A stretch of 25,764 nt of DNA, from positions 1-25,764 of the forward strand of contig JBFWKV010000001.1 in the NCBI GenBank assembly GCA_050252475.1, in the 5' to 3' direction. The translations under genes and the position numbers were made by a program. Numbering within the stretch: the stretch's first letter is position 1; each line of letters begins with the position of its first letter. The notes under the pieces are model-generated. The model saw only the letters and a program-made list of their open reading frames with translations. It made no database searches and was not told the DNA's origin. Source of the DNA: Candidatus Omnitrophota bacterium (GTDB lineage Bacteria > Omnitrophota > Gorgyraeia > DTHP01). Positions 5,222 through 20,612 of this stretch are shown piece after piece.

Positions 5222-5254
5222 TTTATCTCCTTTTATTCCCTGCTCAATGAATCA

Positions 5255-5300
5255 GAAGAGGCCACACTGTCGCACGGTTATTGCGACAGTGCAGCTCTTT
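5255..5300. terminator. Intergenic stem-loop (terminator-like or mRNA processing/stability hairpin)
   Basis: Perfect 10-bp inverted repeat CACTGTCGCA (5265-5274) / TGCGACAGTG (5282-5291) with a 7-nt loop, extended by AAGAG/CTCTT. The T-tract is better on the + strand than on the coding strand, so its role is uncertain. Confidence 0.45.
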
Positions 5301-5313
5301 TCTTCCCAATAGA

Positions 5314-5790
5314 TTATAGAGCTTGGTCGATAAATTGCATTATAAAATCTTCTTGCTCCACAGAGCTTGGTAGTTGTAATTCCCTATTCAATTCACTTAT
5401 CAAACTACCCACTCTTGCCTTTACTATCGTTGTACCCAATCCATCCTCCGTCGGAATTTCAAGGTTTGCCACTTGTTCGGGGGTAATACCTTCAAGATCT
5501 TTCCCTGTTATTTCATCTATTGCTTTTCCTGTTAAGCTCGATATGGCATAATTAATTGTTTGTGCAATGCTATCAGCCGGATTTTTTATCACACCTACTC
5601 CTGAGTTATACCTTGCAAGAGCAGCGTCACGAGGAACTGAATTATGAATTGATTCTATTCTACTAGCGGCTATACTATCGTATAAGCTTTCCATAACCTG
5701 TGAACCACTCAATGAAGTAGCTACAGCTTTAGACACCCCAAAACCTACAATAAAACTCACCATCACTATTCCTATCCCTATCTTCTTCAT
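5314..5790 (-). CDS. Small secreted hypothetical protein (158 aa)
   Basis: RBS GGAGGAG. Sec-type signal MKKIGIGIVMVSFIVGFGVSKAVA with A-x-A site. No family recognised. Confidence 0.8.
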   Translation of the reverse strand: MKKIGIGIVMVSFIVGFGVSKAVATSLSGSQVMESLYDSIAASRIESIHNSVPRDAALARYNSGVGVIKNPADSIAQTINYAISSLTGKAIDEITGKDLEGITPEQVANLEIPTEDGLGTTIVKARVGSLISELNRELQLPSSVEQEDFIMQFIDQAL

Positions 5791-6070: not shown

Positions 6071-7795
6071 TCATAATCCTCCCAGAATCCGTTTGATGCA
6101 GAAAGAAATTAGGGGTGCCGAGGAAATTGTCTTAATTCCTGGAAAAACCGGCAATGTATCCAGAGTGACTAATAATTGAGGAAGCGCTTCTTTATCTTTT
6201 AAAAAATAAAATTCCTCCCGTCCTGAAGAGAATTTTCCCTGCACCACTCCCGCAAAAATCTTCTCAGCATCCGCCCCCAAATTATTTACCAAGTGATATA
6301 CCGCAGATTTTATGGTTCCTCCAGTAGAAGTTTCATCGTCAAGAATAAAAATGTAGTAATCTTTTAATGCGCGGGGAAGAGAAAGTGTTTTCCCGCCTTC
6401 TGTCAGAATCTCACCGCTAATAATAACCTCCGTAGCACTTATCCTTTCTTTATTCAAATAACCAGAAATGACATTCAAACCATAACGCTCTCTCAATACC
6501 TCACCTGCTTCCTGAACATACAAAAATCCTCCATCATCGGGAGAAAGAATAAGCAGGGGTTTCTGGACTTCGTCTTTTCCCTTTAACGCTTCTATTTCTC
6601 GCAATAATCCCTCTGCCAACTGCACAAAACCATTGAGATTGTATACTGATTGGGGAGGAAGAATATCTATGGTTTTTGGGTATCCTTCTTCCTCGCTTAT
6701 CCAGATTTCTGGATTAATTTCAACTAAACCGCTTCTTTTTCCATAATGGACATTTATGGTAAAGTTTTTATCTAAAAGGCAGTTTAATACTTCCAGAAGA
6801 ATATAAGCAGAAACTCCTTCTCCCTCTTTAAATTCTTTATCCTGCCGGCTATAGCCCTGATAGGTATTAATCAGGGAAATGCTATTTACTCCTTTTAGCC
6901 TCAACAGGGAAAGAGTAAGAATTAAAGATAAAATGTTTTCTGAGTTTTCTGTAGAATGAACTATTACAATGTTTTTTCCGCTTAATTTTTCTGGTAAAGA
7001 AACCTTCCAGTGTCCGGGGAAAATCTGTTTTATTTCCAGAAACTGACTTTCTGCCTCTTTTAAGCGAGAAACTGCCCCCTCTACGGTTTCCCTAAAGCGG
7101 GGCTGAAGATAAGCCACATGGTCAATATGGAGAGGTCCTTCTTTCTTCTCTTGCGGAACTATTGAGTTTATAGGAAGAAGATAATACTCACCGCTTTGTT
7201 CAAAGAGAAGAGAAACTTTCTGGGCAAATATCCTAAAGATAGAGACGATTAGATAATCTTCTTCGGAAAAAGGAGTCCAGTTCTTTAGGGTGAGATTAAT
7301 TTCTTTTGCTCCATATTGTTTCAGCGTGCCTAAAGTAAGAAGAATCTTCACAAAATCCTCAGAAGAGTTGAGGGTGGCATAAAAATTGAGGGAAGCATTG
7401 TTTATCTCTTCAGGACTAACCAGACGCAGATAGTATTCGCCATCAGGAAATTGATTATATTCTAATTCAATCTTATTCCCTTCCTCACTTACCAGAAAAA
7501 ACCCTGCTTTTTCCTCGCGAACCCGCCTCAAACCCTCCAAACCGTGTCCACCTCGTAGGTGGCAATCGGGGCCACCTCGTAGGTGGACGGGGTTGGGTGT
7601 TATCAGTTGTATCAGAATGATCGGAATCAGAAGGATCAGAAGAATAAACCGCTGTCCACCTCGTAGGTGGCAATCGGGGACACCTCGTAGGTGGACGGGG
7701 TTGGGTGGTTCGGAGCGGTTAGCAAGTCGGCCAGTAAGGAAAAACAGATTATCTTTTCTCTCCTCTAATCCTGTCAGTAACTGCCTTCTCATCAA
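6071..7795 (-). CDS. prs: Ribose-phosphate pyrophosphokinase (PRPP synthetase)-like protein with leader and duplicated N-terminal domain; start uncertain
   Basis: Motifs FPDGE, YQGYSRQDK, LSPDDGG, NKER and the PRT-type ILDDETSTGGT. Leader FILLILLIPIILIQLIT...GLRRVR. In-frame starts are TTG 7795 / ATG 7792 (overlapping nagB) and TTG 7540. Confidence 0.85.
   Translation of the reverse strand: MMRRQLLTGLEERKDNLFFLTGRLANRSEPPNPVHLRGVPDCHLRGGQRFILLILLIPIILIQLITPNPVHLRGGPDCHLRGGHGLEGLRRVREEKAGFFLVSEEGNKIELEYNQFPDGEYYLRLVSPEEINNASLNFYATLNSSEDFVKILLTLGTLKQYGAKEINLTLKNWTPFSEEDYLIVSIFRIFAQKVSLLFEQSGEYYLLPINSIVPQEKKEGPLHIDHVAYLQPRFRETVEGAVSRLKEAESQFLEIKQIFPGHWKVSLPEKLSGKNIVIVHSTENSENILSLILTLSLLRLKGVNSISLINTYQGYSRQDKEFKEGEGVSAYILLEVLNCLLDKNFTINVHYGKRSGLVEINPEIWISEEEGYPKTIDILPPQSVYNLNGFVQLAEGLLREIEALKGKDEVQKPLLILSPDDGGFLYVQEAGEVLRERYGLNVISGYLNKERISATEVIISGEILTEGGKTLSLPRALKDYYIFILDDETSTGGTIKSAVYHLVNNLGADAEKIFAGVVQGKFSSGREEFYFLKDKEALPQLLVTLDTLPVFPGIKTISSAPLISFCIKRILGGL
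7545..7707. repeat. Two 55-bp direct repeats (7545-7599, 7653-7707), each containing two copies of a hairpin palindrome; REP/BIME-like
   Basis: Unit TGTCCACCTCGTAGGTGGCAATCGGGG[C/A]CACCTCGTAGGTGGACGGGGTTGGGTG, one mismatch between copies, 108-bp period. The core CACCTCGTAGGTGG occurs four times (7549, 7573, 7657, 7681). Much more GC-rich than its surroundings. Confidence 0.95.
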
Positions 7796-8612
7796 GGATA
7801 AAGGTAGTTTGAGGGTGCAATTGGAGAAAAGAAGCAGGACAAGAAAAAGATACCTCTCCCAATAAAGCCCTCTCTACAGGGATTTTCTTTCCCTCTCCGG
7901 AAGCAAGAAGAAATATCTCCCGGCTCTGGAGAATCATATTCAGGCTAATGGTTATAGCCTGAGTAAAATCAACCCCATTGGCTATTTTTGTCTCTTCAGT
8001 TAATTCTACAATTCCAACAAGTCCTTCTGTCTTAAAACCCGGTTCATTAAAAGCAAGATGGCCGTTCCGGCCTATTCCTAAAACTAAAATATCCAGAGCA
8101 CCGATTTCTTTGAGTTCTCTTTCATATCTTTCTCTTTCAGCCTGAATATCCTCAGCATCACCATTTATCCCTAAAAACTTCTTTAAATTGAGCTGATCAG
8201 CTACTGCTTTTCTTATTTGATATTGAAAACTCTCGGGCGAATGTGAACCAGCACCCACATATTCATCAAGCTGTATCAAAATAACTTTTCCCCACACTGG
8301 ATCCAGTCCATATTGAGTTCTCAAGATTTCATATAGTCTCAAGGGAGTATTCCCTGTGGGTAATCCTATCTTTACCTCGCCTTTTTCCTCGGCAATCTGA
8401 TGAATTCTTTCCATAAGGATTTTCGCCATGTTCTGTGACATTTTCTCATAATCAGAATTAATAATTACCTTAACATTGCCGATACTAAAGACTTCGGTTT
8501 CTCTTTCTAATGAGCTCGGTTTTATTCTGCGAAAGAGGAAATTATCGGCAGAAGAAATTGCGGGAAAGAGAAGTAATAAAGCAGAAATTAAAATAATAAA
8601 ATTTCTTTTCAT
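7749..8612 (-). CDS. nagB: Glucosamine-6-phosphate deaminase with N-terminal signal peptide
   Basis: Motifs IGLPTGNTP, LDEYVG, GIGRNGHLAFNEPG and PASFLQLHP; catalytic Asp/His/Glu positions appear intact. Leader MKRNFIILISALLLLFPAISSA-DNFLFRRIK. Confidence 0.93.
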   Translation of the reverse strand: MKRNFIILISALLLLFPAISSADNFLFRRIKPSSLERETEVFSIGNVKVIINSDYEKMSQNMAKILMERIHQIAEEKGEVKIGLPTGNTPLRLYEILRTQYGLDPVWGKVILIQLDEYVGAGSHSPESFQYQIRKAVADQLNLKKFLGINGDAEDIQAERERYERELKEIGALDILVLGIGRNGHLAFNEPGFKTEGLVGIVELTEETKIANGVDFTQAITISLNMILQSREIFLLASGEGKKIPVERALLGEVSFSCPASFLQLHPQTTFILDEKAVTDRIRGEKR

Positions 8613-8672
8613 CTTCCGAGAAGATAAATAAAAATATTTCTCTTCTGCAAAGAAATTAAATTATCCTTGCAT

Positions 8673-10655
8673 TTATGGGCTAGCCTGTTGGAATAATAAC
8701 GCTAAAGCAGTCAGTTTCTCAGGAGTAATTGGTCCTTCTATCTCAAACCTCAATGTATATCTTCCCACATCACTAAGTGCCTTCTGAGTTCCCAAAGCCT
8801 GAAGAGCATTCTGCATTCCGGTGGTAAATTCGGGAATTTTCTCTCCGGGGATAGTTTGCGTACCCGGGTCAGTGGGAACTACAAAAATGAAGAGCCCCGT
8901 ATCATGCCCTTGCATAAAATACTGACGATAAGAATGCTCATATAAGGGACCTATGCCAAAAAGGTCCTGCAAACCTGCCTGGCGTAATGAACTGCGGGCA
9001 GTTTCCCAGACCCGAGCCCTTTCTGGGGTCTCTACAGCATAGGGTAAAACTGCTCCAAAACTCTTACCCAGGACTTCCCGGGAATAAAGGAGGAGTAAAC
9101 TGTATAACTCTGCGGGAGAAAGAGAACTTAAAGTAGAAGAGGCTGATTTAATTATTCCTTTATTTATCCCAAAAGCAATTAAACTGCTTTCTCCATTCTC
9201 ACCCAATAGTGCCATAAATGCTCCATAATCTAAATATACTCCAGGAGCAACCTCAACTCGGTATTTTGTGCGTGCTTTTTCCAGCTCCTCTTCATATGCC
9301 TCCTGAGTAGAAATTCCTCTTTCTTTAATCTCTGAAAGCATTGCCTCTTTCATCTCACGGGTAGCCTTTTTCCCTGCTTCTACCCCTGGCTGGTCAAATG
9401 GTTGAATTCCCATCATAATTCCCGACATTCCCGTAGCAAATTCTAATGCATACAATAAGCCAATTGCCTCTTCTTTACTTCTTACGGTAAACTCCCATAC
9501 GGGAACCCCTTTTTCTATTACCTGTCTCACAAAACCATCGTTAGCATCAGAATCACCTAATTTAATCCGGAAAGCAAAAGTTTCACTGGTATAAACGGAA
9601 GCATCATAATCCCGCTCCATAATCGGTAAAATCCCTCGACCTTTACCCTCTTTATCCACTTTTCCCTGGCTTTCGGCAACCAGTTGCTCAATCCAGGGAC
9701 CAATAGCTTTCAATTCTTCAGGTAAAATAACCCGCATATAAATTCTTCCCTGTTTTTCCATCTCAGCCATAAATTTACCTAAGGCATATTTTGCCTCGGA
9801 TTCCATTGCTTTCTTAGCAGAGGCGAGAATTGCTCTTACATCGTGTCCGGCAAGGGCAGCAGGAAGAAGACCAATGACCGAGAAAATCGTATATCTACCT
9901 CCCACTAAATCAGGATGTTCAAAGATGTTTTCCTGGGGAACATTATTGTTAATTAAAAATTGCATTAAAGGACTGTCTTTCTTAGAGGTAGTGGTGATGG
10001 CAATAAAGTGTTTAGAAGGATCAAGTCCTGCATCTTTGATTTTCTGATAGGCAATCTGGGTAAGCGCCATGGTTTCAGCAGTGGTTCCGGATTTAGAAAT
10101 GGAGATAAAAAGGGTTTTAGAGATATCAATAGCGGATAACACTCTTTGAATATCTTCTTCGTCAAGATTCTCCATAACATGAATCCTTGCATAACCTTCT
10201 TTTGTTCCCAGAATTCCTCTTATTACATCTCCCGGTCTTGAAGAACCACCCATGCCAATAACCACAATATCGGTATATTCTCCTTTGTGTTTTTGAGCAA
10301 ATTCTACAATCTTATCCAGTAATCCTTGAGCATTGTCTATGGGAAGAGTAAGCCAGTGAGTGTCTTTAACACCGTCTGCCTTCTCTCCCCAGATACTTTG
10401 TAATTCTCTCCACATTCCCGCATTGGGATCAATGGGATACTCTCTTTTAAATTTCTCCATTTCTTCCTGAGAAATCTGCCCCTCGTAATTTCTTACCGTA
10501 TACTCAACTGATTTTAACGAAGCTACCCGGCGCAAACTAAGTTCAAAATTTGAAGAGTTCATCTTTTCCCTCCCACTACGAAAAAGAGAAATACCCATTA
10601 GAATAATAAATACCAGCGTGCTTCTATAATACCATAAAATCTTGAATTTTCCCAT
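8673..10655 (-). CDS. pgi: Glucose-6-phosphate isomerase (type found in transaldolase/PGI fusions) with hydrophobic leader
   Basis: Motifs VIGMGGS, ISKSGTTAET, VGGRYTIFS, EQLVAESQGK, PFDQPGVEAGK and C-terminal GPLYEHSYRQ. Leader ends SLRRVA. A second possible start is M32 (10562), with RBS GGGAGG. Confidence 0.9.
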   Translation of the reverse strand: MGKFKILWYYRSTLVFIILMGISLFRSGREKMNSSNFELSLRRVASLKSVEYTVRNYEGQISQEEMEKFKREYPIDPNAGMWRELQSIWGEKADGVKDTHWLTLPIDNAQGLLDKIVEFAQKHKGEYTDIVVIGMGGSSRPGDVIRGILGTKEGYARIHVMENLDEEDIQRVLSAIDISKTLFISISKSGTTAETMALTQIAYQKIKDAGLDPSKHFIAITTTSKKDSPLMQFLINNNVPQENIFEHPDLVGGRYTIFSVIGLLPAALAGHDVRAILASAKKAMESEAKYALGKFMAEMEKQGRIYMRVILPEELKAIGPWIEQLVAESQGKVDKEGKGRGILPIMERDYDASVYTSETFAFRIKLGDSDANDGFVRQVIEKGVPVWEFTVRSKEEAIGLLYALEFATGMSGIMMGIQPFDQPGVEAGKKATREMKEAMLSEIKERGISTQEAYEEELEKARTKYRVEVAPGVYLDYGAFMALLGENGESSLIAFGINKGIIKSASSTLSSLSPAELYSLLLLYSREVLGKSFGAVLPYAVETPERARVWETARSSLRQAGLQDLFGIGPLYEHSYRQYFMQGHDTGLFIFVVPTDPGTQTIPGEKIPEFTTGMQNALQALGTQKALSDVGRYTLRFEIEGPITPEKLTALALLFQQASP

Positions 10656-10703
10656 TTTTCTTCCCCTTTTTCTATTTATTAAAATATTGTTTCTCTATTT
10701 AGA

Positions 10704-10732
10704 GATATCACACAAAATTACTAAATCGTCAA
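10704..10732 (-). promoter_or_regulatory. Weak putative sigma70 promoter upstream of pgi
   Basis: TTGACG-N14-TGT-GATATC; same geometry as the other candidate promoters but with a poor -10. Confidence 0.3.
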
Positions 10733-10793
10733 TATACGGTTCTATAATCGGATTGCTAAATGAAAACTTACAAAATATCTTTTCCCCATTTTC

Positions 10794-12761
10794 TTACCCG
10801 GCCATTCTCACTCTATTTATCCAGGAATCGATAACTTGGTGAAGCTGGTTCAATCTTTCTTTTGCAGCTTCTGCTGATTCATTACTCACCGCCTCGATAT
10901 AAATTCTTAACTTTGGTTCGGTTCCCGAGGCACGCACAAGGAAACTACTTCCATCAGTAAAGATTACTCTTATCCCGTCTTTTACACCGTCAACTTCAGT
11001 AATAATATTTCTAACCACACAACCTTCCCCAAATACTTCTCCTGCTTTGAGATTGCCTAAAACAGAAAGAATTCTCTCTATGGTTTGCCGCGCTTGAATA
11101 CCCTTCACTTCAATTGCCCAACCTGTATTCCGGTAAAATGGATGGAGACCTTCGGGAAGTAAACCGGCCTGTGAACGTGCAAATAGTTCTTTTTCTATTG
11201 CTTCTAATTTTTTAAACACGACTGAATCGGGTCTTACCAGGGGAACAAATCTATCGCCGTCGGAATCCCAGAGTATAATTACCTCCTCTGGAGAATTTCT
11301 ACCCAGTTCCTGATTCCATAAGGCAAGGGCTTGTAAGAAGAGCACTGAAGACATTACTCCATCTTTCTCATAACTGTGGGGCATAATGGCAAAACCATCG
11401 GCAAATTCCGCACCGTATAAAACAACTTTATCCTTACCACCTTCCTGGTCATTGTATTGATGTGCCTTATCGCCAATATATTTAAATCCCACCGCTACAT
11501 CAATTGTTCCTACTCCAAATAAATAATTTATTGCCCTTAGCATATTGGTCGTAGCATGATTTTTTACTGATACACCATTATTTGGTAAAGCTCCTTGAGA
11601 ACGTAATTTATCTAGATAATAATATGCCAGTAATATTGCTATTTCATCTCCTGTAAGCATACGCCACTCGCCACCGCCGGCTAATTTAATGGCTAAATCG
11701 GGACTACCGGGTAAGCGGGGATCCGGTCCTCTTAAACCCGTAAAGTTGGGATCTTCTTGCGCATGTTCATCCACAATCTGATAATCGTAACCGAGGGCTT
11801 TAATTGCCTGGGGACCAAAAACGCGGTTTCCACCGTAAAGGGGATCAAGGGTAATTTTTAGCAAACTCTGCATAGAAGGAGTAACTCGCTCATCCCGGCC
11901 ATGCTCTACAATTGAATTCAAATAGAGAGAATCAAGTTCTTCACCTAAGAAAACCAACAAACCTCTCGCTTTAGCCTCCTCAAGAGGAATAGCTTTTACC
12001 TCTCCGAGGTTGACTGATTTATAAGCATCAGTAATTATCTGGGTAGGCTCAGGCATCAGTTGAGCACCATAAGAAGCAGAAACTTTGATGCCGTTATAGC
12101 CCGTAGGATTGTGACTGGCAGTAATCATCACACCACCTGCAACAGAAAGACGGGGCAAAAGATGGGATACCCAGCCAACATTCTTATCTGAAGAAGACAT
12201 TACTACTTTTATATTATGGGCAGTGAGAATACCTGCAATTAACTCGGCATACTTTCTTGAACCGTCACGTGTATCATAACTAATGAGAAACGGCTTTCCT
12301 TCGGGATTTACCCCCGGCGTAAGAAGATATCTTGCCACTGCCTCGCCTGCTCGCTTTACGGTATACTCGTTTATCCTATTTGGACCAACACCTATCTTAC
12401 CACGCATACCCGCAGTTCCAAATGACAAATCAGTATAAAATGCATCTTTAAGTTCCTCCCAGTTACCACTATCAACCAATTCTTTTATCTGGCGCCAGGA
12501 TTCTCCATAATCATCCTCCAGCCATCTTAAAATATTCTTATAGGTAATTTCTCCGGTGGGGTCAGGAGTGCTATTTAATTTACCCTCATTTTTTGCCAGA
12601 ATAAGAGTTTCTCTTAATTTGTTTTTCAGGATAACTTCGCTATCCTTTATCCTCCTAGCAAGATAATCATAAAGACAACATCCAGATGGATCCAATTGCA
12701 CTCCAGATGAAACAAAAAATAATATCAAAATACTGGTAAGAAATATCTTATTTCTACCCAT
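10794..12761 (-). CDS. pgm: Alpha-D-phosphohexomutase (phosphoglucomutase/phosphomannomutase) with leader and rearranged metal-binding loop
   Basis: Motifs FGTAGMRG, ITASHNP (Ser216), VGFKYIG, EKDG and VRASGTEPKLRIY. The DSDGDR motif is present but lies after domain 3. RBS AGGAGG. Leader ends YLARRIK. Confidence 0.9.
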   Translation of the reverse strand: MGRNKIFLTSILILFFVSSGVQLDPSGCCLYDYLARRIKDSEVILKNKLRETLILAKNEGKLNSTPDPTGEITYKNILRWLEDDYGESWRQIKELVDSGNWEELKDAFYTDLSFGTAGMRGKIGVGPNRINEYTVKRAGEAVARYLLTPGVNPEGKPFLISYDTRDGSRKYAELIAGILTAHNIKVVMSSSDKNVGWVSHLLPRLSVAGGVMITASHNPTGYNGIKVSASYGAQLMPEPTQIITDAYKSVNLGEVKAIPLEEAKARGLLVFLGEELDSLYLNSIVEHGRDERVTPSMQSLLKITLDPLYGGNRVFGPQAIKALGYDYQIVDEHAQEDPNFTGLRGPDPRLPGSPDLAIKLAGGGEWRMLTGDEIAILLAYYYLDKLRSQGALPNNGVSVKNHATTNMLRAINYLFGVGTIDVAVGFKYIGDKAHQYNDQEGGKDKVVLYGAEFADGFAIMPHSYEKDGVMSSVLFLQALALWNQELGRNSPEEVIILWDSDGDRFVPLVRPDSVVFKKLEAIEKELFARSQAGLLPEGLHPFYRNTGWAIEVKGIQARQTIERILSVLGNLKAGEVFGEGCVVRNIITEVDGVKDGIRVIFTDGSSFLVRASGTEPKLRIYIEAVSNESAEAAKERLNQLHQVIDSWINRVRMAG

Positions 12762-12851
12762 AATTAATCCCCCTCCTTTTATGCCTGTAAAAATATATTA
12801 TCTTTTTTTCTCCAATCTTCCCTAATTACTAATTAATCCTTTTTCTTATAA

Positions 12852-12880
12852 AATATAACATCAATTATCTTAATCGTCAA
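12852..12880 (-). promoter_or_regulatory. Putative sigma70 promoter upstream of pgm
   Basis: Minus strand TTGACG-N14-TGT-TATATT, 17-bp spacer, about 90 bp upstream of the start. Confidence 0.6.
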
Positions 12881-12945
12881 GAGGGGGATATCCATTGGAT
12901 TGCACCAACATATTCTAGACCAATCTATTTCTTTATACTAAAGAA

Positions 12946-13869
12946 TTAATCGTTAGGAAGATGGATATAGATATCCGCTCCCATAACCGGATGGTATCCC
13001 AAACTTGAAACCACATCTTCTGCTTTTAGCAGAAATCTTTTATCCTCAAATCCTGCTTGTTTCGTTATCTGTTCAATAACTGTCCAATCGTACTTGCCAA
13101 AAATACGGTAATTTGCTCCTCCCAGAAAAGCAATCTTAAAAGGTGCAAACCTTTCCAGATACTGCCCCAGGTTGAAAAGATGGCTGTAGCCAACAAATAC
13201 CATTATCCTTCCCTCAGGATTACGCATAAGAAAATCAGAAATCTTCTCGCTCAGGAAAAAATCAGAAGTCCGTTCTCCACCATTATGCAGAGCTATCGGT
13301 CTTATTCCATGTTTCTTTACTACCTGAATCAACTCTAAATATTTTTCGGGAGCCCATCCCCAGAAATCTTTTAATATCTGAAGAATCTCTTCCTCCAGAT
13401 GGTAGTTGGCTTCTACTTCATACTCAGGAGTCTCAAAATATCTGTCCAATATCTCCTGTTTATCAGCAGGAAACATCTCTAAACCTAAATATCCGAAACC
13501 CATTTGTTTAAATTCCTCCATATGCTTGATTAGTTCGGTTTTGGCTGAGAGATTGGCAGTGCCTAAAAGGGGATTACCATGCATCTCGCCAAAGATAACC
13601 ACTTGAGTGGACGCAGGTATTATTTTTCTATAGTCCATCTCAAAATTAGCATGAGCAAGGAGTTTTTGCTGAGAAAATCCTTTTATTCTACGATAGATGT
13701 GGTAATATCCATCAAAAGCTTCATCTTTATAATTGGGTGGGAAATTACTCGTTAACCACGTACAAAAAATAACCCATATAAATACCCCTCTCTTTATTAA
13801 CCAAAAAACTTTATTTTTAAAATTAACCTCTTTCTTACTCATAATTTTCTTCTTAGTCTTAACCTTCAT
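12946..13869 (-). CDS. ChaN/EreA/TraB-like fold protein with leader
   Basis: Motif series VIFGEMHG, LGLEMF and VFVGYSHL matches the GExH...LE...GxxH pattern of this superfamily. Leader GVFIWVIFCTWL...HIYRRIK. The start may be M10. Confidence 0.6.
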   Translation of the reverse strand: MKVKTKKKIMSKKEVNFKNKVFWLIKRGVFIWVIFCTWLTSNFPPNYKDEAFDGYYHIYRRIKGFSQQKLLAHANFEMDYRKIIPASTQVVIFGEMHGNPLLGTANLSAKTELIKHMEEFKQMGFGYLGLEMFPADKQEILDRYFETPEYEVEANYHLEEEILQILKDFWGWAPEKYLELIQVVKKHGIRPIALHNGGERTSDFFLSEKISDFLMRNPEGRIMVFVGYSHLFNLGQYLERFAPFKIAFLGGANYRIFGKYDWTVIEQITKQAGFEDKRFLLKAEDVVSSLGYHPVMGADIYIHLPND

Positions 13870-14169
13870 CGTTTTTGTCTTATCTTAAATAAAAAAGAGC
13901 TAATCTTCGCCCCTTGTTGTAATCAGAGTCCTCCCCTTCTACATAAAAGTTAAAAATTTGATGATCTTTCTTAATCGTTCTTCAAGGTCTTTGGGCTTCC
14001 CACTCTCTTAAAATTTCTAAAACCTCTTGATACTTTTCTTTAGGAAACGACAAGCCATAAAATACATATGACACAAACACATCACCATGCCCCGCACCTG
14101 AATAGTGTATGCTATTCAGCATAAGGTAGTTATATTTACCCCTCTTTTTAAACCAATCTTCAGCGTATT

Positions 14170-14939
14170 TTAGGGACTATCCCAGGAAAAGAAAATCGCC
14201 TCCAAAGCCATTTTTAATTGTTGATATACATCCTGGGGTATCTCAATACCTTTATCCTGTTTAAGCCTCTCCCGATAATACAAACAAAGTTCTTTCATCT
14301 CTTCACCGCTTAAATGGGTTAAATCATACTTATTTTTACTCTGTAAAAACTCTTGCTGAAGATTAAAAAATAATCTTCTTCAATCTCTCCGGAGTATACT
14401 GTAGAAGCAAAACTTTCTATAAATCTTCGGTAAGTATCGTAAGCAAAAAACAATCCTTTCTCACCGCCTCCTCCTAATTTCACTAAACCTTGGACATTGG
14501 AGTCATTAATACCTAAATTTACTACTGTGGGAAGAATTCCGGGCATTTTTTCTGGAGGAGCACTGCGCACAGATAAGATTAATGGTTTATCCTCTCCACC
14601 AAATCTTTTGCCAGTTTTTCTTTCTAATTCTTTTATTCCTGCCAACACCCTATTCCAGAGGTAATCACTCACTTTCCCCTCTTTTTTGTATTCCTTAAAT
14701 CCCCTTCTGGTGACCACAAATCCTTCGGGAACCGGAATACCTAATCGCATTAAATTCCCCAAATCTTTAACCTTCTGTCCTACACCGAGATAAGCAGGTA
14801 TGTTTTCCAGAGAAACTATTGTTTCCCCGGAAACTCTTGCCCTTCTAAAAAACTCCCCTTCAACATAGCCATTCGTCAGGGGATAAAATATAAAAGTAGA
14901 AGCCAACCCTAATATAATTTGTTTAATTCCTCGCTTCAC
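14170..14939 (-). pseudogene. ppdK: Frameshifted, truncated pyruvate phosphate dikinase (N-terminal nucleotide-binding part only) with leader
   Basis: GTG start with RBS AAGGAGG. Motifs LGIPVPEGFVVT, PLILSVRS, MPG..TVVNLGIND and FAYDTYRRFI. Homology continues in another frame after the A6 run at 14365-14370 (NLQQEFLQSKNKYDLTHLSGEEMKEL...PQDVYQQLKMALEAIFFSWDSP) to TAA at 14170-14172. Confidence 0.85.
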
Positions 14940-14960
14940 TTTAAATCCTCCTTATACAAT

Positions 14961-14989
14961 TTTTTATCACAGCTTTAAGGTACTGTCAA
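14961..14989 (-). promoter_or_regulatory. Putative sigma70 promoter upstream of the ppdK-like gene
   Basis: TTGACA-N14-TGA-TAAAAA, 17-bp spacer, directly upstream of the RBS; imperfect -10. Confidence 0.4.
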
Positions 14990-15001
14990 GAATCACTGAG
15001 A

Positions 15002-15205
15002 CTACCACTCTATTACGAAAAGAGAATTGACCTCTCTTACCTGATTGGATTTAGACTTTGGGCCGGGCGCAGGAAGGTTTATGGTAAATAAGGTATTATC
15101 TGGGAAATAGCTGGTACTTACCGAGGAACCTCCATCAAGATTTATCGCAGCTTTATTTTTATCATAGATTTTGAATGGGGGACTTGGTTTTCTAACACTT
15201 TTGCT
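15002..15205 (-). pseudogene. Start-less remnant of a phosphodiester glycosidase (NAGPA-family) C-terminus
   Basis: Not in the ORF track. A 67-codon open frame between stops reads ...KAAINLDGGSSVSTSY...NQVREVNSLFVIEW*. AINLDGGxS and the terminal R-x-V-x-x-x-hydrophobic pattern are typical of this family. Confidence 0.55.
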
Positions 15206-15278
15206 TTAAACTCATCTTTAATTTTGATTTTGCTCCCCTTTTGTCAAGTTTTTATTCTATACAAATCGACCCTTTCGC

Positions 15279-16421
15279 TTAATGGGGAGTCAATATTCCT
15301 CCCAAGATTTCTCCAAGCAGCTGGTAAACCACATTCTCAGAAAGAGGCCATGCGTAGTCAGGTTCGAGTGCAATAAAAACAGCCTCAGCCTTTCCATTTG
15401 AGACAACTTCATTAATATATTCTACTAATTTCTTCGCATACAATGGTAATCTATGGCGCTCTACTTGTAAATGCGCCACTTCATCAACACCTTCGTCATC
15501 GTTTATAAAAGGATACCCTACAGAAAACCAGTCAAAGTCAATACTTATAACAATTTTTTCATATTTCCGCAGATTATCATTATCTATAAATGAAATTGGG
15601 AATTTAATTCTATCTATAACTCTTTCAGGTGTAAGATCAGGTTCCGTCGCCGTTTTTAGAATACCGTCTTTATCTTTAAAGATATCCAATGTAATTTCCT
15701 CCTGCTTTAAAGAAAATATGGTTTTTTTCTTCGCCTTGCTTTTTGTATATATTTGGCTGAATAATTCTTGCAGTGCTCCTTCGATACCCCCTTTATAACG
15801 CGTGTCCAAAAACGGATGTTCTTCTGCCCGCAGAAACTCAGGAATCACCCAATGTACGCCGGATACCAGCTTCGCTAATAGAGAGGCTAATACAACACCT
15901 TCACTTGAAACTACAAATTCTTTAGCATCAGCACCTCTTTTTTCCCACGATGGTCTTAGAAAATAAGCGTCGTGATGTGCATCGAAATTAACTAAAGTTG
16001 TATTATCACTCAATAAGCCATTTATCCGAGCATCCATTAATGCTTCGAATAAACCGCTGTGCGTAGCACATATATATATTCTTGGTGAAGTATCAAGCAC
16101 GAGAACTACTGAATAATTATAACCTGGCCACATCATCTTGTTTTCTCCGTAAATATATTCCAAGATATAGGCACTTAACTCTGAAATATCTATACCTTTT
16201 CCTCTAATAAATCTTCCTATGTTTATTTTAACTAATTTCTCCCCAGAGCTTAAAAGTGCATACCCTCTATTGGTGATTAAATTGCCGTCTTTATCTAGAG
16301 AACCTATTATTCGTGTTCTTCGGAAAAATATACAAGCCTGATGTCTTAAGGGAAGAAAAGTAGAGGAAAGACTACTCATTATTGATAAAAAAACATATAA
16401 ATAAGAAATCACCTTCTTCAA
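15279..16421 (-). CDS. UPF0489-like (arginase/deacetylase fold) protein with leader
   Basis: Motifs IYICATH, TLVNFDAHHD and ISIDFDWFS. TTG start with RBS GGAAGG. Leader ends IFFRRTR. Confidence 0.65.
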   Translation of the reverse strand: MKKVISYLYVFLSIMSSLSSTFLPLRHQACIFFRRTRIIGSLDKDGNLITNRGYALLSSGEKLVKINIGRFIRGKGIDISELSAYILEYIYGENKMMWPGYNYSVVLVLDTSPRIYICATHSGLFEALMDARINGLLSDNTTLVNFDAHHDAYFLRPSWEKRGADAKEFVVSSEGVVLASLLAKLVSGVHWVIPEFLRAEEHPFLDTRYKGGIEGALQELFSQIYTKSKAKKKTIFSLKQEEITLDIFKDKDGILKTATEPDLTPERVIDRIKFPISFIDNDNLRKYEKIVISIDFDWFSVGYPFINDDEGVDEVAHLQVERHRLPLYAKKLVEYINEVVSNGKAEAVFIALEPDYAWPLSENVVYQLLGEILGGILTPH

Positions 16422-16511
16422 TTTTTTCCTTCCATGATTATTTAATTATTATTAAAAGTACTAAATAAGCCCGCAAAAATCGTCTTTCTATCTATCTTAT
16501 TATCTTTTAAT

Positions 16512-18026
16512 TTAATTTTCTTTATTAAGAACTTCTTCAAGAACTTCATTAAGGACCGCTGGAAGAAGACTCTCTAAGATAGTTACAGTAAGGCTCTGGG
16601 TTGAAGAATCTAATTGCTCCCATTCATTCACCACAATTTCATCATAGTCAGCACTTCCCCCATATTCTCGGGGAGACTGGCTCGCTCTTACATATGTCTC
16701 TCCCAGCAAAGGCCAATCCTGAGGGTTTCTACCCTGGGCTCTTAATCGATGTTCTATTCTTCCTACCATCTCTCTAATAATAACCTTCATTGCTGTCAGA
16801 AGTAATTGATTTCTTGCAATTTCTCCATATATATCATTCGCTATATCAACAACTCTTTGAAGGTTAAGCGGAGTGCTAAGTTTTGAGTTAACCTTTGTCA
16901 AATCACTTTCTTTCAATAATCCTGTTGATTGTAACCATGTATAAATATCGGAATCCGGATGTAAAATCTTATAACCAATAGCTGCTAATATGGCATTCTT
17001 AACATTTAAGAAAGCTTTATTTTCCTCAGGAGTCAAACCTTCGGGAAAACTAATTAAATTAGGTAGTTCCTGAGCAATAAATTTTTCTATTCCCCCTCTC
17101 AACAATTTCTGAACATCTAACCCTTCAACTTCTTCTTGGTATTCTAAACCGAGTTCCATAATCATCCGCCGTTTAAATTCTTTTATAGAGATAGGAGCAA
17201 TGAAAATAGAAGTTGCTTCGGGGAATAATCTCCTAACATGGTCAAACCATACCCGGTCTCCCTCTAAGATTACAATCTTGCCATTACCTTTTTTGGTAGC
17301 CTCTTCTATTTTTCTGGGATCAAGACCTTGATAATAATCACGCACCGGTTCAACAATTATACCTTCTTCATCGCGCAATCTGAACAATTCCTCCTGAGAC
17401 ACAAACCAGTAATGCACACCGTTAAATTCAGTATAAGCTATAATTCGACCATCTGTTAATATCTGAAATCTTTCTTCTATAGCTGGAATGTCTTGCCGGG
17501 GAGAACCCGCTAATATTACCTTCCAATCAGGAAAAAGCACTTCCTCCAACTCATCTTGTTTTGTCTTGTCCATTGTCAGAATAGCCTCTCTTTGCTCCGG
17601 CGATAATTTATCCAAAAGTTCCTTCATGGAAGAAGGAAGATTACCTTGCTGAGACAAATCAAGATATAGTTTTATCGCGGAATAACGAGGGTCAGAAGAG
17701 GTAAAATTCACTCCTCGCCGTTGCCGAGTAGCATATAATAGAAATCGTTGAAATCTATCAGGATATAATTCCAGCATCCTTTGTTTAATTGTTCCCTGTC
17801 CAACTGCAGAGGGACCGGAATGAACAACAAATTTATGCTGGCTTTCTATACCAGCAATAACCTCGGGAGATAACGCCTCTAAAAGATACTCCAGATAGGC
17901 TGTTCTTGTCCTTCTTAAAGAATCACCAGTGGAAGAACCGCTGATGGAAGAAATGGGTATGGCAATACTAAGAGAAAGAATCAAGAATAAATATAAAATT
18001 ATGTTCCTAAATACCTTCTTCATCAT
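16512..18026 (-). CDS. gmk: Guanylate kinase-like protein with leader, degenerate P-loop and two large insertions
   Basis: Motifs SGPSAVGQGT, ATR..R.G, NGVHYWFVS, ILEGD, IFIAPIS and YDEIVVNE appear in Gmk order. ATGA overlap with the upstream Nudix gene. Leader ends DSLRRTR. Confidence 0.75.
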   Translation of the reverse strand: MMKKVFRNIILYLFLILSLSIAIPISSISGSSTGDSLRRTRTAYLEYLLEALSPEVIAGIESQHKFVVHSGPSAVGQGTIKQRMLELYPDRFQRFLLYATRQRRGVNFTSSDPRYSAIKLYLDLSQQGNLPSSMKELLDKLSPEQREAILTMDKTKQDELEEVLFPDWKVILAGSPRQDIPAIEERFQILTDGRIIAYTEFNGVHYWFVSQEELFRLRDEEGIIVEPVRDYYQGLDPRKIEEATKKGNGKIVILEGDRVWFDHVRRLFPEATSIFIAPISIKEFKRRMIMELGLEYQEEVEGLDVQKLLRGGIEKFIAQELPNLISFPEGLTPEENKAFLNVKNAILAAIGYKILHPDSDIYTWLQSTGLLKESDLTKVNSKLSTPLNLQRVVDIANDIYGEIARNQLLLTAMKVIIREMVGRIEHRLRAQGRNPQDWPLLGETYVRASQSPREYGGSADYDEIVVNEWEQLDSSTQSLTVTILESLLPAVLNEVLEEVLNKEN

Positions 18027-18934
18027 TTACTCCTTTCTTGCACAAACAACCCTTTTAGATATTGCACTACATTATCGTGAGAAAAATACATTACAAGTGC
18101 ACTTGAGTAATCACGGAAACTTACTTTTAAATCATCTAACAGCTCAACAAGCGGTTTAAATGCTATCTCACTTACATCTTCAGGCTTAATTTCATTAAAT
18201 TTACTCAGGAGAACCTTCTTTTCTTCATCTGACACTACATACATAAAAAGTGTTAATCTCTCTGCATTATTAGAAGGGTTATCAGAATAATGAAAATAGA
18301 TATCTCCTACAAACCCATCTTCTTCCACATCATTTCTTCCCACTTTTATAAACTGATTTTCTTCCCCTATCAAGATTAAGTCAGTTCCATCTAATTCTAA
18401 ACCTATTTCTTCTTTGAGTTCCCGTATGATAGCTTCACGGGGTGTTTCTCCCGGAGCAATATGTCCCGACGCAGAGGCTTCCCATCTATTAGGTTCTGCT
18501 ACATGGGGTGCTCTTTTCTGTAGCAATAAATTCCCTTCCTTATCAAATATTAAAATACTTACTGCCAGATGCCAATCTCCCTCTCGATGAATAGCATCTC
18601 TCTGTTTTAATATTCCAGTAGGCCTGGCGGTATCCTTATCCACAACCTCAAAATATTCAGGTATTTCTCTTTCCAACATTAGTTCTCTCAAAATAGATAA
18701 AACTTCACCTGTTCCATAATCACTACCCAATCTTTGATTAATGTATTTTACAACTTCCTCGGTCTTAAATTCTACCGCTGGATTGTTATTTATAAATTCT
18801 TTTATTGCCTCTTTGACCTGCAGATTATAAAAAAATTTAGACCTTCTTAGGGACAATAATAAATTATTTGAAGACACAAGAGGTATTATTAAATTCATGG
18901 ATGCAAAAGCGAATAAAAATATTATTCTACACAT
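18023..18934 (-). CDS. Nudix hydrolase (IDI/YfcD-like subgroup) with leader
   Basis: Full Nudix box GHIAPGETPREAIIRELKEEIGL, preceded by IHREGDWHLAVSILIF and LLLQKRA. It lacks the catalytic Cys of type 1 IDI (EASASGH). Leader ends LSLRRSK. Confidence 0.85.
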   Translation of the reverse strand: MCRIIFLFAFASMNLIIPLVSSNNLLLSLRRSKFFYNLQVKEAIKEFINNNPAVEFKTEEVVKYINQRLGSDYGTGEVLSILRELMLEREIPEYFEVVDKDTARPTGILKQRDAIHREGDWHLAVSILIFDKEGNLLLQKRAPHVAEPNRWEASASGHIAPGETPREAIIRELKEEIGLELDGTDLILIGEENQFIKVGRNDVEEDGFVGDIYFHYSDNPSNNAERLTLFMYVVSDEEKKVLLSKFNEIKPEDVSEIAFKPLVELLDDLKVSFRDYSSALVMYFSHDNVVQYLKGLFVQERSK

Positions 18935-18964
18935 AATATTTTTAATTCATCTTTAATGTATTAC

Positions 18965-20608
18965 TCACCTTGGACTTATCACCGTCAAAAACATAAGTTC
19001 TAAATTATCTTCGCTTTCATTCTTAATTTCGTACCCGGTGATTCTACCAGAAATATCTCCACTAACTTCTGCACCAGCCGGCAATGTGTTTCCATCATTA
19101 TTTAATACAATTACATCTCCTCCATTAAAATTAAGGGTTACCGTCCCACCGCCTTCATAATGGATTATTACCTTCCCTTTGATTTTGGCAATATTATCTT
19201 CACTTAACCACTGAGTTGTTCCTTCTGGCATATTTTTAGGCCAGGGGAAAATACGAATAACCTGGGTATCATCATTCAAAGGAATAAAGGGCATCGTCTC
19301 CGTTGTCTTCCCAGGTTTAACCACCACTATCTGTGCCTGAAGTGGTAATGGATCCTTTTCCACAATTCTACCCTCGGCGTCAAATACCACAAACCCTCCT
19401 GCATCAAGCTCTACAGCCGTAGGTATCCATCCGTGATATTTCTCATAGACCTGAGTATAAATTTCTCCCCAATTACGCACATCTTTTACTGGTTCTTTTC
19501 TTTCCATAATTCCTTTCGGCCCTCCCGTTCCTTTACTAAGTTGTCCTTGGGGATTTTTCAGAGTAAAATCCGCGGTAGGATAATCATTGGGATTTTCAAG
19601 TTGATGGTTTATACCTTCTTTTGTTTGATCATCTATAGGAGCCAGACTTTTATAACCAAAGTTATATTTTTCTGTAGTAGCAGAGTGAATAAGTACATTA
19701 TCTGATAGAAATATAGTTTCTTCTTCAAAGCCTCCATGGTTATGAGCATTTTGGGGTTTATGAGGTCTATTCTCAGCTTCAGTTATGGCTAAACCATAGA
19801 AATTTGCTCTTCCGGTATGAAACGCTATATACTGCCGCATTGTCCCATCATCTCTATACTCAAACCCCATTTCTCCTCCCCGCAAAAATTTCAATGCCCC
19901 AAAGGGAATAACCGCAACCTGAACATTTTTATCTTTAACCATATAAAGCACATTCTCGTCACTAACCGTATAGGCTCTAAGGTATAATTCATAAAGATAC
20001 TTACTTATAAAGGGAATTCCAGAATTTCCTTTAGCTAAGTCTAATAAATCCTTAGATAATGGAAAAGCTTGTTGCATCCTTTCAAAGCGAAGGTGATTCG
20101 CTTGTGGGGTAACATAATCAGCAAAAGTGGGAGCATTGTTTTGTGCGTCTAACATCTGTTTCTGTAATTTTATTAAACCTATCGTTTGAGCATTGCCATC
20201 GCGGTATCCCCTTATTTCTTGAACCAAAGATTTTAAATTAGTATTGTTACTATTTACTAATAGAAAAATCAAAAAATCACTTAATTCCTGTGGTACTCCG
20301 CCGTTCTGTAACCCACTCTGTATTCCGTCAGAGGTTAATTTACCCCCAAGATACCCATCTAGAACACCTGCAAGCAAATCAAATTTTCTATCGCTTCTTT
20401 CACCCGGGTAAGATTCACGAGCTTGTTCAATACGCTGCCAGCTTTGAACAACTTGCGCAAGAAATTCTAACTCAAAAGCTCTTCTAACCCGGCGCAGAGA
20501 GGAAGTTGGGTTAACAACCGGTGTGACTACTAAAGATGGTAATAAGATAAAATAGCAGAGTATTCCGATAAATCCAAATTTAGATATCCATTTTTTTCTT
20601 GTTTTCAT
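18965..20608 (-). CDS. Cupin-domain protein with leader
   Basis: HxH...E cupin metal motif AHNHGGFEEE (19719-19748) and a cupin-like C-terminal barrel (GDVIVL...YEIKNESEDNLELMFLTVISP). RBS AAGGAG. Leader ends SSLRRVR. Substrate unknown. Confidence 0.6.
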   Translation of the reverse strand: MKTRKKWISKFGFIGILCYFILLPSLVVTPVVNPTSSLRRVRRAFELEFLAQVVQSWQRIEQARESYPGERSDRKFDLLAGVLDGYLGGKLTSDGIQSGLQNGGVPQELSDFLIFLLVNSNNTNLKSLVQEIRGYRDGNAQTIGLIKLQKQMLDAQNNAPTFADYVTPQANHLRFERMQQAFPLSKDLLDLAKGNSGIPFISKYLYELYLRAYTVSDENVLYMVKDKNVQVAVIPFGALKFLRGGEMGFEYRDDGTMRQYIAFHTGRANFYGLAITEAENRPHKPQNAHNHGGFEEETIFLSDNVLIHSATTEKYNFGYKSLAPIDDQTKEGINHQLENPNDYPTADFTLKNPQGQLSKGTGGPKGIMERKEPVKDVRNWGEIYTQVYEKYHGWIPTAVELDAGGFVVFDAEGRIVEKDPLPLQAQIVVVKPGKTTETMPFIPLNDDTQVIRIFPWPKNMPEGTTQWLSEDNIAKIKGKVIIHYEGGGTVTLNFNGGDVIVLNNDGNTLPAGAEVSGDISGRITGYEIKNESEDNLELMFLTVISPR

Positions 20609-20612
20609 AAAA

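Follow-up and report, generated by a model that had tools for sequence, protein, structure and literature searches.

The region analysed here, referred to as the window, is a 25,764-nt stretch from an uncultured Candidatus Omnitrophota bacterium with a 1.22-Mb genome (87% complete), in agreement with the lineage named in the first-pass annotation. All genes at 6071-25529 lie on the minus strand and form a same-strand array (Table 1). Based on Pfam and NCBIfam profiles, its members include divergent homologues of PGI, PGM, NagB, PRPP-synthetase (Prs), Gmk and Nudix hydrolases. All family scores fall far under the NCBIfam equivalog cut-offs, and we therefore treat these genes as divergent paralogues.

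Table 1 Features of the array and its downstream neighbours
Feature	Position	Strand	Basis or remark
Downstream neighbours, 158-aa and 1690-aa proteins	149..5790	-	Ordinary signal peptides, RR box absent
Leader-bearing PRPP-synthetase-like protein	6071..7795	-	PF13793, 43.6 bits
55-nt palindromic repeat, two in-frame copies	7545-7599, 7653-7707		Flank h-region of Prs leader
Leader-bearing NagB (GlcN6P deaminase)	7749..8612	-	PF01182, 87.7 bits
Leader-bearing PGI-like protein	8673..10655	-	PF00342, 97.7 bits
Leader-bearing phosphohexomutase (PGM-like)	10794..12761	-	PGM domains I, III and IV above cut-off
Leader-bearing ChaN/Tiki-superfamily protein	12946..13869	-	PF04187, 51.1 bits
Leader-bearing PPDK N-terminal-domain relic, pseudogene	14176..14939	-	tblastn with genome's own PPDK, three-frame translation
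Leader-bearing UPF0489 / arginase-fold protein	15279..16421	-	PF12640, weak
Leader-bearing guanylate-kinase-like protein, 504 aa	16512..18026	-	PF00625, 46.5 bits
Leader-bearing Nudix hydrolase	18023..18934	-	PF00293, 59.2 bits
Leader-bearing 547-aa protein	18965..20608	-	SSLRRVRR; no known family (Pfam, NCBIfam)
Leader-bearing 1638-aa protein, first gene of array	20613..25529	-	RR at aa 41-42

Hydropathy predicts membrane helices in the 1638-aa protein around aa 625-688 and 1240-1416. The protein has no Pfam match and only 7 homologues among 5.8 billion proteins; its AF2 model (mean pLDDT 42) gave no match in a Foldseek search. For the UPF0489-like product, atlas features reached 0.89-0.92 for UPF0489 clusters, and the structural rows were arginase/agmatinase. 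The two downstream neighbours are syntenic in a same-genus genome, and different tagged genes occupy the locus of the array in genome G001. The tagged repertoire thus changes between close relatives, as accessory genes typically do.

A two-part leader marks a subset of proteins

Eleven of the 13 window ORFs of at least 150 aa begin with the same leader, a Sec-type N-terminus followed ~12 residues on (median of 12 aa from the end of the h-region to RR) by an invariant RR-[IV]-[KR] box. In these ORFs the n-region has a median net charge of +3 (minimum +1), reaching +10 in the very basic ChaN-family protein, and the h-region has a median length of 15 aa (range: 10-26). Genome-wide, RRx[KR] occurs no more than 45 aa after an N-terminal hydrophobic segment in 25 of 302 ORFs, compared with 17 of 626 ORFs lacking such a segment and a chance expectation of ~2.6% per 45-aa window. 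Because all six Arg codons occur, selection on RR acts at the protein level. The RR pair is retained in orthologues with 57-65% identity while the neighbouring leader sequence diverges. Among PGI orthologues it persists down to ~55% identity, and clusters of other families in the class conserve it too.

The leader is lineage specific and confined to a subset of ~27 proteins genome-wide. Outside the window it is found on a transaldolase, PLP aminotransferases, FeoA and a radical-SAM enzyme whose CxxxCxxC motif is intact. The four secretins and the S8 peptidases of the genome have signal peptides but lack the RR box. Both copies of the 55-nt repeat, which is dispersed over five other contigs, interrupt the leader of Prs, and the leader of its same-genus orthologue is clean.

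The first-pass annotation described seven sugar-phosphate and nucleotide enzymes, all with leaders. This holds for PGI, PGM, NagB, Prs, the Gmk-like protein and Nudix, but the presumed PPDK is a frameshifted relic. Its ORF (14319-14939) covers just residues 27-154 of the PPDK encoded by this genome and continues in another frame to ~14176, where it meets a stop. The gene is disrupted in three independent assemblies, with the X2 copy carrying a different indel at 14365 and the same stop.

Catalytic signatures of the tagged proteins

Most of the remaining proteins retain the motifs of their families. The PGI-like protein has intact GGRYT and FDQPGVE..K signatures, and the tagged NagB, which matches Bacillus subtilis NagB (2BKV) with 125 bits, keeps the catalytic motifs GIGRNGHLAFNEPG and LDEY. 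An intact Nudix box (G-x5-E-x7-REL-x-EE-x-GL) is present in the tagged Nudix hydrolase, which also matches Nudix modules encoded by a large ORF of genome G266. The tagged PGM retains its phosphoserine loop (TASHNP) and its phosphate loop (SGTEP), and no metal-binding loop was found where the alignment to solved mutases would place it. The tagged Prs resembles archaeal class III enzymes, with intact RQDK and DDETSTGGT motifs and an additional degenerate N-terminal domain; Prs requires ATP, which counts against an extracytoplasmic role. The Gmk-like protein is probably not a kinase: its P-loop reads GPSAVGQGT compared to GPSGVGKGT in 4QRH, replacing the Walker A lysine with glutamine, and it carries large inserts. 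Its gene has no orthologue in the five other genomes of the family. Two of the seven proteins first taken for enzymes, this one and the PPDK relic, are therefore probably not.

The lost lysine and inserts of the Gmk-like protein, the fragmentary PPDK-like gene, the PGM loop and the scores of every member far under equivalog cut-offs would all fit surface or periplasmic pseudoenzyme modules that bind sugar phosphates or nucleotides for adhesion or sensing. We regard this as very improbable, given that catalytic signatures have survived divergence in PGI, NagB, Nudix, Prs and PGM.

Housekeeping copies and phylogeny

Leaderless housekeeping copies, for which the first-pass annotation proposed a search, were found with high scores for Prs (183 bits), Gmk (154 bits) and PGM (148 bits), and PPDK is also present; relatives have a small housekeeping transaldolase. 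In contrast, no leaderless PGI or NagB was found in this genome or in a 96%-complete genome of the same genus, leaving PGI and the NagB/Pgl family represented, among the genes found in this genome, by the tagged copies alone. That annotation had named sole copies of essential enzymes that are shown to be cytoplasmic, with untranslated leaders, as evidence against its own proposal; PGI and NagB match half of this description, being sole copies. The tagged PGI and NagB might simply be the cell's working enzymes, which counts against export.

In line with the long-branch paralogue clades that the first-pass annotation proposed to look for, the tagged PGI forms a clade of its own (SH-aLRT 99) on a stem of 2.5 changes per site; in 5.8 billion proteins, just 24 clusters belong to it. 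The family also contains a leaderless subclade (P0015, P0017 and P0018, the last with stops upstream of its start), which likewise counts against export. According to KO calls in a recent study, most complete Omnitrophota genomes lack PGI, with 67 of 176 having it (10.64898/2026.06.07.730766).

The tagged PGM falls within a clade of PGM modules from giant ORFs (SH-aLRT 100), apart from housekeeping PGMs, which upholds the suggested link to giant multi-domain proteins and makes the cluster an unfused version of their repertoire. In the literature, the domains of giant Omnitrophota proteins include PGI, PGM/PMM, PPDK_N, NUDIX, Radical_SAM and TPR (10.1101/2023.11.21.568195), and their placement is predicted to be extracellular (10.1101/2023.11.21.568195; 10.64898/2026.06.07.730766). 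The families of the array are those that other Omnitrophota fuse into such proteins. The giant proteins ('Archaeovorins', West-Roberts et al. 2023; 'multi-enzyme metabolic clusters') share with the array the phylum, the domain repertoire, including a ROK kinase, and the paradox that enzymes of cytoplasmic type sit behind signal peptides or transmembrane segments. Here, however, every domain has a gene to itself (200-660 aa) and a leader of its own. No internal units of h-region plus RR were found in three giant or large ORFs (28,499 aa, 6,551 aa and >5,314 aa), and the parts of the two studies available do not describe an RR box (10.1101/2023.11.21.568195; 10.64898/2026.06.07.730766).

Anatomy of the leader and the direction of sorting

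The anatomy of the leader resembles that of cleavable Sec signals, and from it we infer export. In 25 of 26 leaders, the stretch that separates the h-region from RR has small residues at -3/-1, and the genome encodes SPase I. Two considerations count against this. In Escherichia coli, basic residues shortly past the Sec cleavage site hinder export, and with the leader also present on a radical-SAM enzyme, FeoA and PLP aminotransferases, active products of Sec export are not expected.

Alternatively, the leader may be an uncleaved anchor that tethers the enzymes beside the cluster's large membrane proteins, where they would face the cytoplasm and work on its ordinary pools, with RR-[IV]-[KR] on the cytoplasmic face as a positive-inside determinant or docking motif. 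We consider this somewhat unlikely. It would suit the cytoplasmic location of all substrates (sugar phosphates, ATP, PRPP and SAM) and of Fe-S/PLP loading, the PGI and NagB found only as tagged copies, the radical-SAM enzyme and FeoA among the tagged proteins, the three basic residues that come after the hydrophobic segment, and the 1638-aa protein, with two predicted helices between its N-terminal and central parts. Nearly half of the giant proteins are read in this manner ('TM-only') in one study (10.64898/2026.06.07.730766). However, tethering requires an N-out/C-in orientation, which is unlikely because the n-regions are always net positive, up to +10 in ChaN. The h-regions are also shorter than typical anchors, the polar linkers with small residues that follow them are like those of cleavable signals, and soluble housekeeping copies of four families coexist with the tagged ones.

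Among known systems, Tat signal peptides are similar in having an invariant Arg-Arg that precedes a hydrophobic residue and, in many cases, Lys, and the tagged cargo includes cofactor enzymes suited to folded export. Unlike in Tat signals, the RR here comes after the hydrophobic segment and no further h-region follows. TatC is present in the genome but need not depend on RR-leader clients, because there is a canonical Tat substrate (TRRTFLK on contig C52). A canonical Tat signal is also found on L070, a PGM-module protein from another Omnitrophota family. Plasmodium PEXEL, oomycete RxLR, CsgA N22 and dibasic propeptide sites are downstream elements that follow Sec/SPase I signals. The RR leader is like these in its tripartite signal peptide, the basic motif within ~10-25 residues and the restriction to a subset of proteins, but its motif has a different sequence.

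Envelope machinery is plentiful for a 1.2-Mb genome, in line with the contact-dependent machinery that the first-pass annotation proposed to look for: T2SS/T4P-type components are abundant, with four secretins, at least eight T2SSE ATPases and a pseudopilin operon on contig C17. Such machinery, T2SS/Tad-like or other, could deliver the tagged proteins as metabolic effectors into the cytoplasm of a prey or host cell, redirecting its sugar-phosphate and nucleotide pools, as the first-pass annotation preferred. We think this improbable. The partner's cytoplasm would supply ATP and cofactors for Prs and the radical-SAM enzyme, and the reduced genome, the variable, decaying repertoire and the many secretins and ATPases are consistent with it, but no injection system was identified or tied to the RR box and the sequences fit periplasmic or surface action equally. 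To our knowledge, T2SS and Tad pili do not deliver proteins into another cell, and we know of no host for this lineage.

Effectors of this kind have precedents. Chlamydia trachomatis secretes the PGM CT295 and glycogen enzymes, with the PGM acting outside the bacterium to make importable Glc6P (PMC9251005, PMC4829429), and microsporidia secrete hexokinases behind signal peptides (PMC6460350). As here, a host-dependent organism with a reduced genome adds an export signal to cytosolic sugar-phosphate enzymes. In Chlamydia, however, the addition is a type 3 secretion signal on a housekeeping enzyme rather than a Sec-like leader on extra paralogues. A UhpT/GlpT-type sugar-phosphate importer was not found in G000 or G001, a further difference from Chlamydia and a point against export.

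A possible extracytoplasmic sugar-phosphate pathway

To say that export is meaningful only into a host cytoplasm goes too far, since an intact core of Nudix, PGM, PGI, NagB and transaldolase requires no ATP. Our preferred reading, held tentatively, is that fast-evolving stand-alone paralogues are exported and that this ATP-independent core processes prey or host sugar phosphates outside the cytoplasm. The leader would bring the proteins to the cytoplasmic membrane and through it, with the RR box as an additional mark, for sorting or maturation, that is limited to this subset. There, the intact core would act on phosphorylated sugars freed from a prey or host cell: Nudix would convert NDP-sugars to sugar-1-phosphates, PGM would convert G1P to G6P and PGI G6P to F6P, while NagB would convert GlcN6P to F6P. 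The tagged transaldolase, encoded elsewhere, would join this core, and flux would be funnelled to fructose-6-phosphate. The cell's own cytoplasm, without another PGI or NagB, would then begin glycolysis at F6P.

Genome context and gene order

The assembly under study (G000) comprises 1.22 Mb in 178 contigs and is 87% complete, with 37% G+C; the window is its contig C1. DNA near-identical to the window is present in landfill and oil-field metagenomes, of which landfill is the probable source of the window itself, and no RNA data are listed among the public runs that contain window-like DNA. All long ORFs of the window are encoded on one strand and separated by short spacers, and a common leader opens 11 of the 13 ORFs that are 150 aa or longer. 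The first protein in transcription order was modeled by AF2 at a mean pLDDT of only 42, with no Foldseek match in the PDB at E ≤ 0.001, and for the second we found no family in Pfam, NCBIfam or Atlas.

Table. Genes of the window in transcription order, and positions of features in the window and in other Omnitrophota contigs.
Feature	Contig	Position	Strand
Gene 1, 1638-aa membrane protein	window		minus
Gene 2, 547-aa protein, family-less	window		minus
Gene 3, Nudix	window		minus
Gene 4, Gmk-like	window		minus
Gene 5, UPF0489/arginase-fold protein	window		minus
Gene 6, relic of PPDK N-terminal part	window		minus
Gene 7, ChaN/Tiki-superfamily protein	window		minus
Gene 8, PGM-like	window		minus
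Gene 9, PGI-like	window		minus
Gene 10, NagB	window		minus
Gene 11, Prs-like	window		minus
Genes 12-13 (after Prs-like), 158-aa and 1690-aa proteins with ordinary signal peptides	window		minus
PPDK alignment, first part	window	14786-14397
PPDK alignment in another frame, then stop	window	14379-14176
1-nt insertion and 1-nt deletion in strain X2	window	13989 and 14365
55-nt palindromic repeat, two in-frame copies	window	7545-7599, 7653-7707
Leader variants RRVH, SVRWTR	G000 C133, C142	1037-2578, 1938-2543
Leader-bearing radical-SAM enzyme, FeoA-domain protein	G000 C147, C142	1657-2604, 1460-1900
S8 peptidases with T2SS/T4P genes	G000 C17, C44	609-12399, 439-6073
Tagged-type transaldolase match with in-frame TGA	G001 C7	50248-51110
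PGM-module protein with Tat-type signal (L070)	G172 C2	434500-442500
Stops and seemingly decayed leader (L055)	GCA_964487065.1, CAZAPE010000019.1	5700-6100

A Sec-like leader followed by an Arg-Arg box

Across 26 leaders, the n-region has a median net charge of +3 (minimum +1, and +10 in the ChaN protein) and is followed by an uncharged, hydrophobic h-region with a median length of 15 aa (range 10-26). A polar linker (median 12 aa), which in 25 of the 26 leaders has small residues at -3/-1 by a crude rule, then leads to an invariant Arg-Arg, Val/Ile, Lys/Arg and often Asp/Glu/Pro. Judged by this anatomy, the leader is a predicted Sec signal, with the features of a Sec-type (SPase I) signal peptide.

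Genome-wide, of the ~1,130 ORFs that reach 100 aa, about 27 encode proteins with the RR box. Among 302 ORFs with a hydrophobic segment at the N-terminus, 25 have the pattern RRx[KR] downstream of it, compared to 17 of 626 controls, and the pattern is threefold enriched at residues 20-40 over the whole genome. Two leader variants (Table) escape simple RRx[KR] patterns, so the tagged set probably exceeds 27. All six Arg codons are in use within the box, which indicates that the constraint acts on the protein and rules out a nucleotide-level cause. The box is retained in twelve PGI orthologues of 55-65% identity whose leaders are otherwise unrecognisable, in the PGI-NagB-Prs cluster of the same genus and in a cluster from another family of the class. 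On a contig from the same family, it marks PGI, an ADH-Pgl/NagB fusion, a GT28-like transferase and a kinase-like protein of the ROK type; these names were read from translations, and those of PGI and the Pgl/NagB portion were checked. The first-pass annotation had considered that the leaders might be untranslated, which is contradicted by open frames that begin with a basic Met-Lys/Arg, and by conservation of both hydrophobicity and RR in orthologues with diverged DNA.

The position of the box rules it out as a Tat signal: in Tat signals RR precedes the h-region, whereas in the tagged leaders it lies 2-24 aa behind it, with no hydrophobic stretch beyond. A Tat translocase is present (TatC on contig C87, 143.5 bits), and a canonical substrate on C52 (TRRTFLK) rules out an orphan TatC with the RR proteins as its clients. 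In another Omnitrophota family, a 1351-aa PGM-module protein (locus L070) carries a canonical Tat-type signal, with RR ahead of the hydrophobic segment and an A-x-A site behind it.

Contact or secretion machinery, which had been named as a correlate of export, is well represented in G000: besides SPase I and TatC, we identified a pseudopilin operon, four secretins and eight or more ATPases of the T2SSE type. The four secretins and the S8 peptidases have signal peptides and lack the RR box, so the box labels only a subset. Two of these subtilisin-like peptidases (662 and 1162 aa) adjoin T2SS/T4P genes, namely an ATPase, a GspF-like and five pseudopilin-like genes. These two peptidases are candidate processing enzymes for a dibasic site.

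Divergent members of known enzyme families

The first-pass annotation described the cargo as exported PGI, PGM, NagB, Prs, PPDK, Gmk-like and Nudix enzymes. All enzyme homologues in the window score above their Pfam cut-offs and far under the NCBIfam equivalog cut-offs (for example, 134 versus 296 for the best Prs model and 168 versus 487 for PGI); on sequence criteria, they are true but strongly diverged family members. The PGI-like protein scores 97.7 bits against PF00342 (cut-off 22) and contains GGRYT and FDQPGVEAGKK. NagB scores 87.7 bits against PF01182 and 158.9 against TIGR00502, under its cut-off of 236.9, and its alignment to 2BKV (125 bits) matches the GIGRNGH.(A/G)FNEPG and LDEY motifs. 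Alignment of the Prs-like protein (PF13793, 43.6 bits) to 1U9Y yields SRQDKEF and LDDETSTGGT, and the box GX5EX7REUXEEXGU is legible in the translation of the Nudix protein (PF00293, 59.2 bits). In the PGM-like protein, domains I, III and IV pass their Pfam cut-offs and domain II reaches 27.8 versus 29.3; the phosphoserine loop TASHNP and the phosphate-binding loop RASGTEP are present, while the candidate for the metal loop DxDxDR, DSDGDR near aa 497-503, falls outside the stretch aligned to solved mutases. Catalytic signatures are preserved in four proteins (PGI, NagB, Nudix and Prs) and partly in PGM. That the cargo serves some non-catalytic binding role seems to us very improbable.

Two of the proposed enzymes did not hold up. 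In place of the ~870-aa, three-domain protein expected of a working PPDK, the match in the window covers just residues 27-238 of the PPDK that G000 encodes elsewhere, split by a frameshift and ending at a stop (Table). The gene is broken in contigs from three independent samples, with a different indel and the same stop in one strain. Relative to the window, strain X2 from an oil metagenome (depth ~28) has an insertion and a deletion inside the relic, which therefore gathers indels between strains. In the Gmk-like protein, the Walker A lysine is replaced by glutamine (GPSAVGQGT versus GPSGVGKGT in 4QRH), which argues against guanylate kinase activity, and none of the family's five other genomes yielded an orthologue. 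Two copies of a GC-rich repeat with the core CCACCTCGTAGGTGG interrupt the Prs leader. This repeat is present on six or more contigs of G000, among them C61, C18, C17, C8 and C104, and looks like a small REP/MITE-like element able to sit within coding sequence. The Prs leader of the same genus is clean and unsplit.

Housekeeping copies and further cargo

Leaderless housekeeping copies were anticipated for the tagged enzymes. We identified high-scoring copies of Prs (C56), Gmk (C55), PGM/PMM (C67) and PPDK (C15 and C104), but a second PGI or NagB was found neither in G000 nor in the 96%-complete genome from the same genus (G001). PGI and NagB are known in this lineage only in tagged form, which bears on metabolic reconstructions that score PGI as absent; a 2026 preprint scores it as present in only 67 of 176 complete Omnitrophota genomes (10.64898/2026.06.07.730766). 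A small housekeeping transaldolase is present in relatives and is a contig-end fragment in G000.

Elsewhere in G000, the leader is carried by a transaldolase, two class I/II aminotransferase-like proteins, a TPR-transglutaminase protein, several family-less proteins, a radical-SAM enzyme with intact CxxxCxxC and a FeoA-domain protein, beside which no FeoB was found on the 3.2-kb contig. In G001, a second, tagged-type transaldolase match is broken by an in-frame stop (Table), another hint that the tagged repertoire is decaying or turning over.

Phylogeny and relationship to giant proteins

As anticipated, tagged PGI forms a long-branch paralogue clade, which is closed and contains 24 sequence clusters from a collection of 5.8 billion proteins. 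Identity is at least 39% within the clade and ~30% outside it, and in the tree a stem of 2.5 changes per site sets the clade apart from other PGIs, among them PGIs from other Omnitrophota. One subclade of this tagged-type family (P0015, P0017 and P0018) starts without the leader, possibly through natural leader loss. Upstream of P0018, locus L055 contains stops and a seemingly decayed hydrophobic leader in another frame, and the adjoining 1155-aa gene retains an RR leader.

The suggested link to large multi-domain proteins was confirmed for PGM. Tagged PGM clusters with PGM modules from very large ORFs (SH-aLRT 100), including one of 28,499 aa in the Omnitrophota genome G006 and others in G123, G266, G265, G268, G103 and G099, and apart from the ~475-aa housekeeping PGMs, among them that of G000. 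By BLAST, the Gmk-like and Nudix proteins also match modules of large ORFs. The tagged window genes, which encode 206-1638 aa, are not themselves giants (single ORFs of >10,000 aa). Nor are giants strings of leader-plus-module units, as judged from three ORFs: in that of G006 we counted 5-7 hydrophobic segments and not one RRx[KR], compared to about 3 expected, and no RRx[KR] was found after hydrophobic segments in those of G123 and G266.

According to West-Roberts et al. (10.1101/2023.11.21.568195), giants contain PGI, PGM/PMM, TIM, FBPase, FBA, PPDK_N, NUDIX, Radical_SAM and TPR domains and are mostly predicted to be extracellular, with some placements remarked to be unlikely. Giants with signal peptides carry a sugar-metabolism module of PGM, ROK kinase and radical SAM, as stated in the 2026 preprint (10.64898/2026.06.07.730766). 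Because the tagged cargo corresponds to this published repertoire, the window is best seen as the same set of domains in unfused form. Cytoplasmic enzymes behind export signals are thus already known as the giant-protein paradox; we found no description of the stand-alone, RR-boxed form in the literature searched.

Where the enzymes may work

Our tentative preference is that the exported core funnels hexose-phosphates of a partner cell to fructose-6-phosphate (F6P) outside the cytoplasm. Nudix would convert NDP-sugars to sugar-1-phosphates, PGM and PGI would carry G1P through G6P to F6P, NagB would convert GlcN6P to F6P, and transaldolase could yield F6P as well. The intact cargo core is thus ATP-independent, with all its routes leading to F6P, and a lysed or tapped partner cell would supply the hexose-phosphates. 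A cytoplasm seemingly without PGI and NagB makes such funnelling a coherent reading. There is a parallel in Chlamydia, which secretes its own PGM and so makes importable Glc6P (PMC9251005). Effectors of the Chlamydia type use type 3 secretion, whereas the window leaders are Sec-like.

Several observations speak against an exported core. Radical SAM, FeoA and Prs would be senseless in the periplasm, the first two are also hard to square with Sec export, the leader is lost in a subclade of tagged-type PGIs, and no sugar-phosphate importer of the UhpT/GlpT family was found in G000 or G001. A search for the ATP/ADP translocase PF03219 likewise gave no match, but its control was silent everywhere too. 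A membrane-tethered array facing the cytoplasm would solve the substrate and cofactor problem, but clashes with the charge distribution of the leaders, whose basic N-terminus, most extreme in ChaN, speaks against an N-out anchor; we consider it rather unlikely. Delivery into a host cytoplasm, the destination first proposed, would reconcile substrates and cofactors with leader charge alike, yet there is no machinery to point to, and we think it improbable.

Implications for Omnitrophota

Abundant and ultra-small, Omnitrophota are bacteria that are thought to live at the expense of other cells, and the predicted outside location of the glycolytic and nucleotide-enzyme domains of their giants has been called implausible. 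The cluster presents this giant-protein problem in small pieces, as eleven ordinary-size genes with one short, defined leader each. Because such leaders can be fused to reporters, mutated and expressed, the side of the membrane on which this metabolism takes place becomes directly testable, where the giants made the question intractable. It is conceivable, if a long shot, that the RR box acts as a second-step sorting signal of a kind not yet described, one that routes sugar-phosphate, nucleotide and even Fe-S enzymes into a prey cell or into an extracytoplasmic space fed by prey. If so, some of the small cell's central metabolism would take place beyond its cytoplasm, and the giant 'Archaeovorins' would represent this exported metabolism in fused form.
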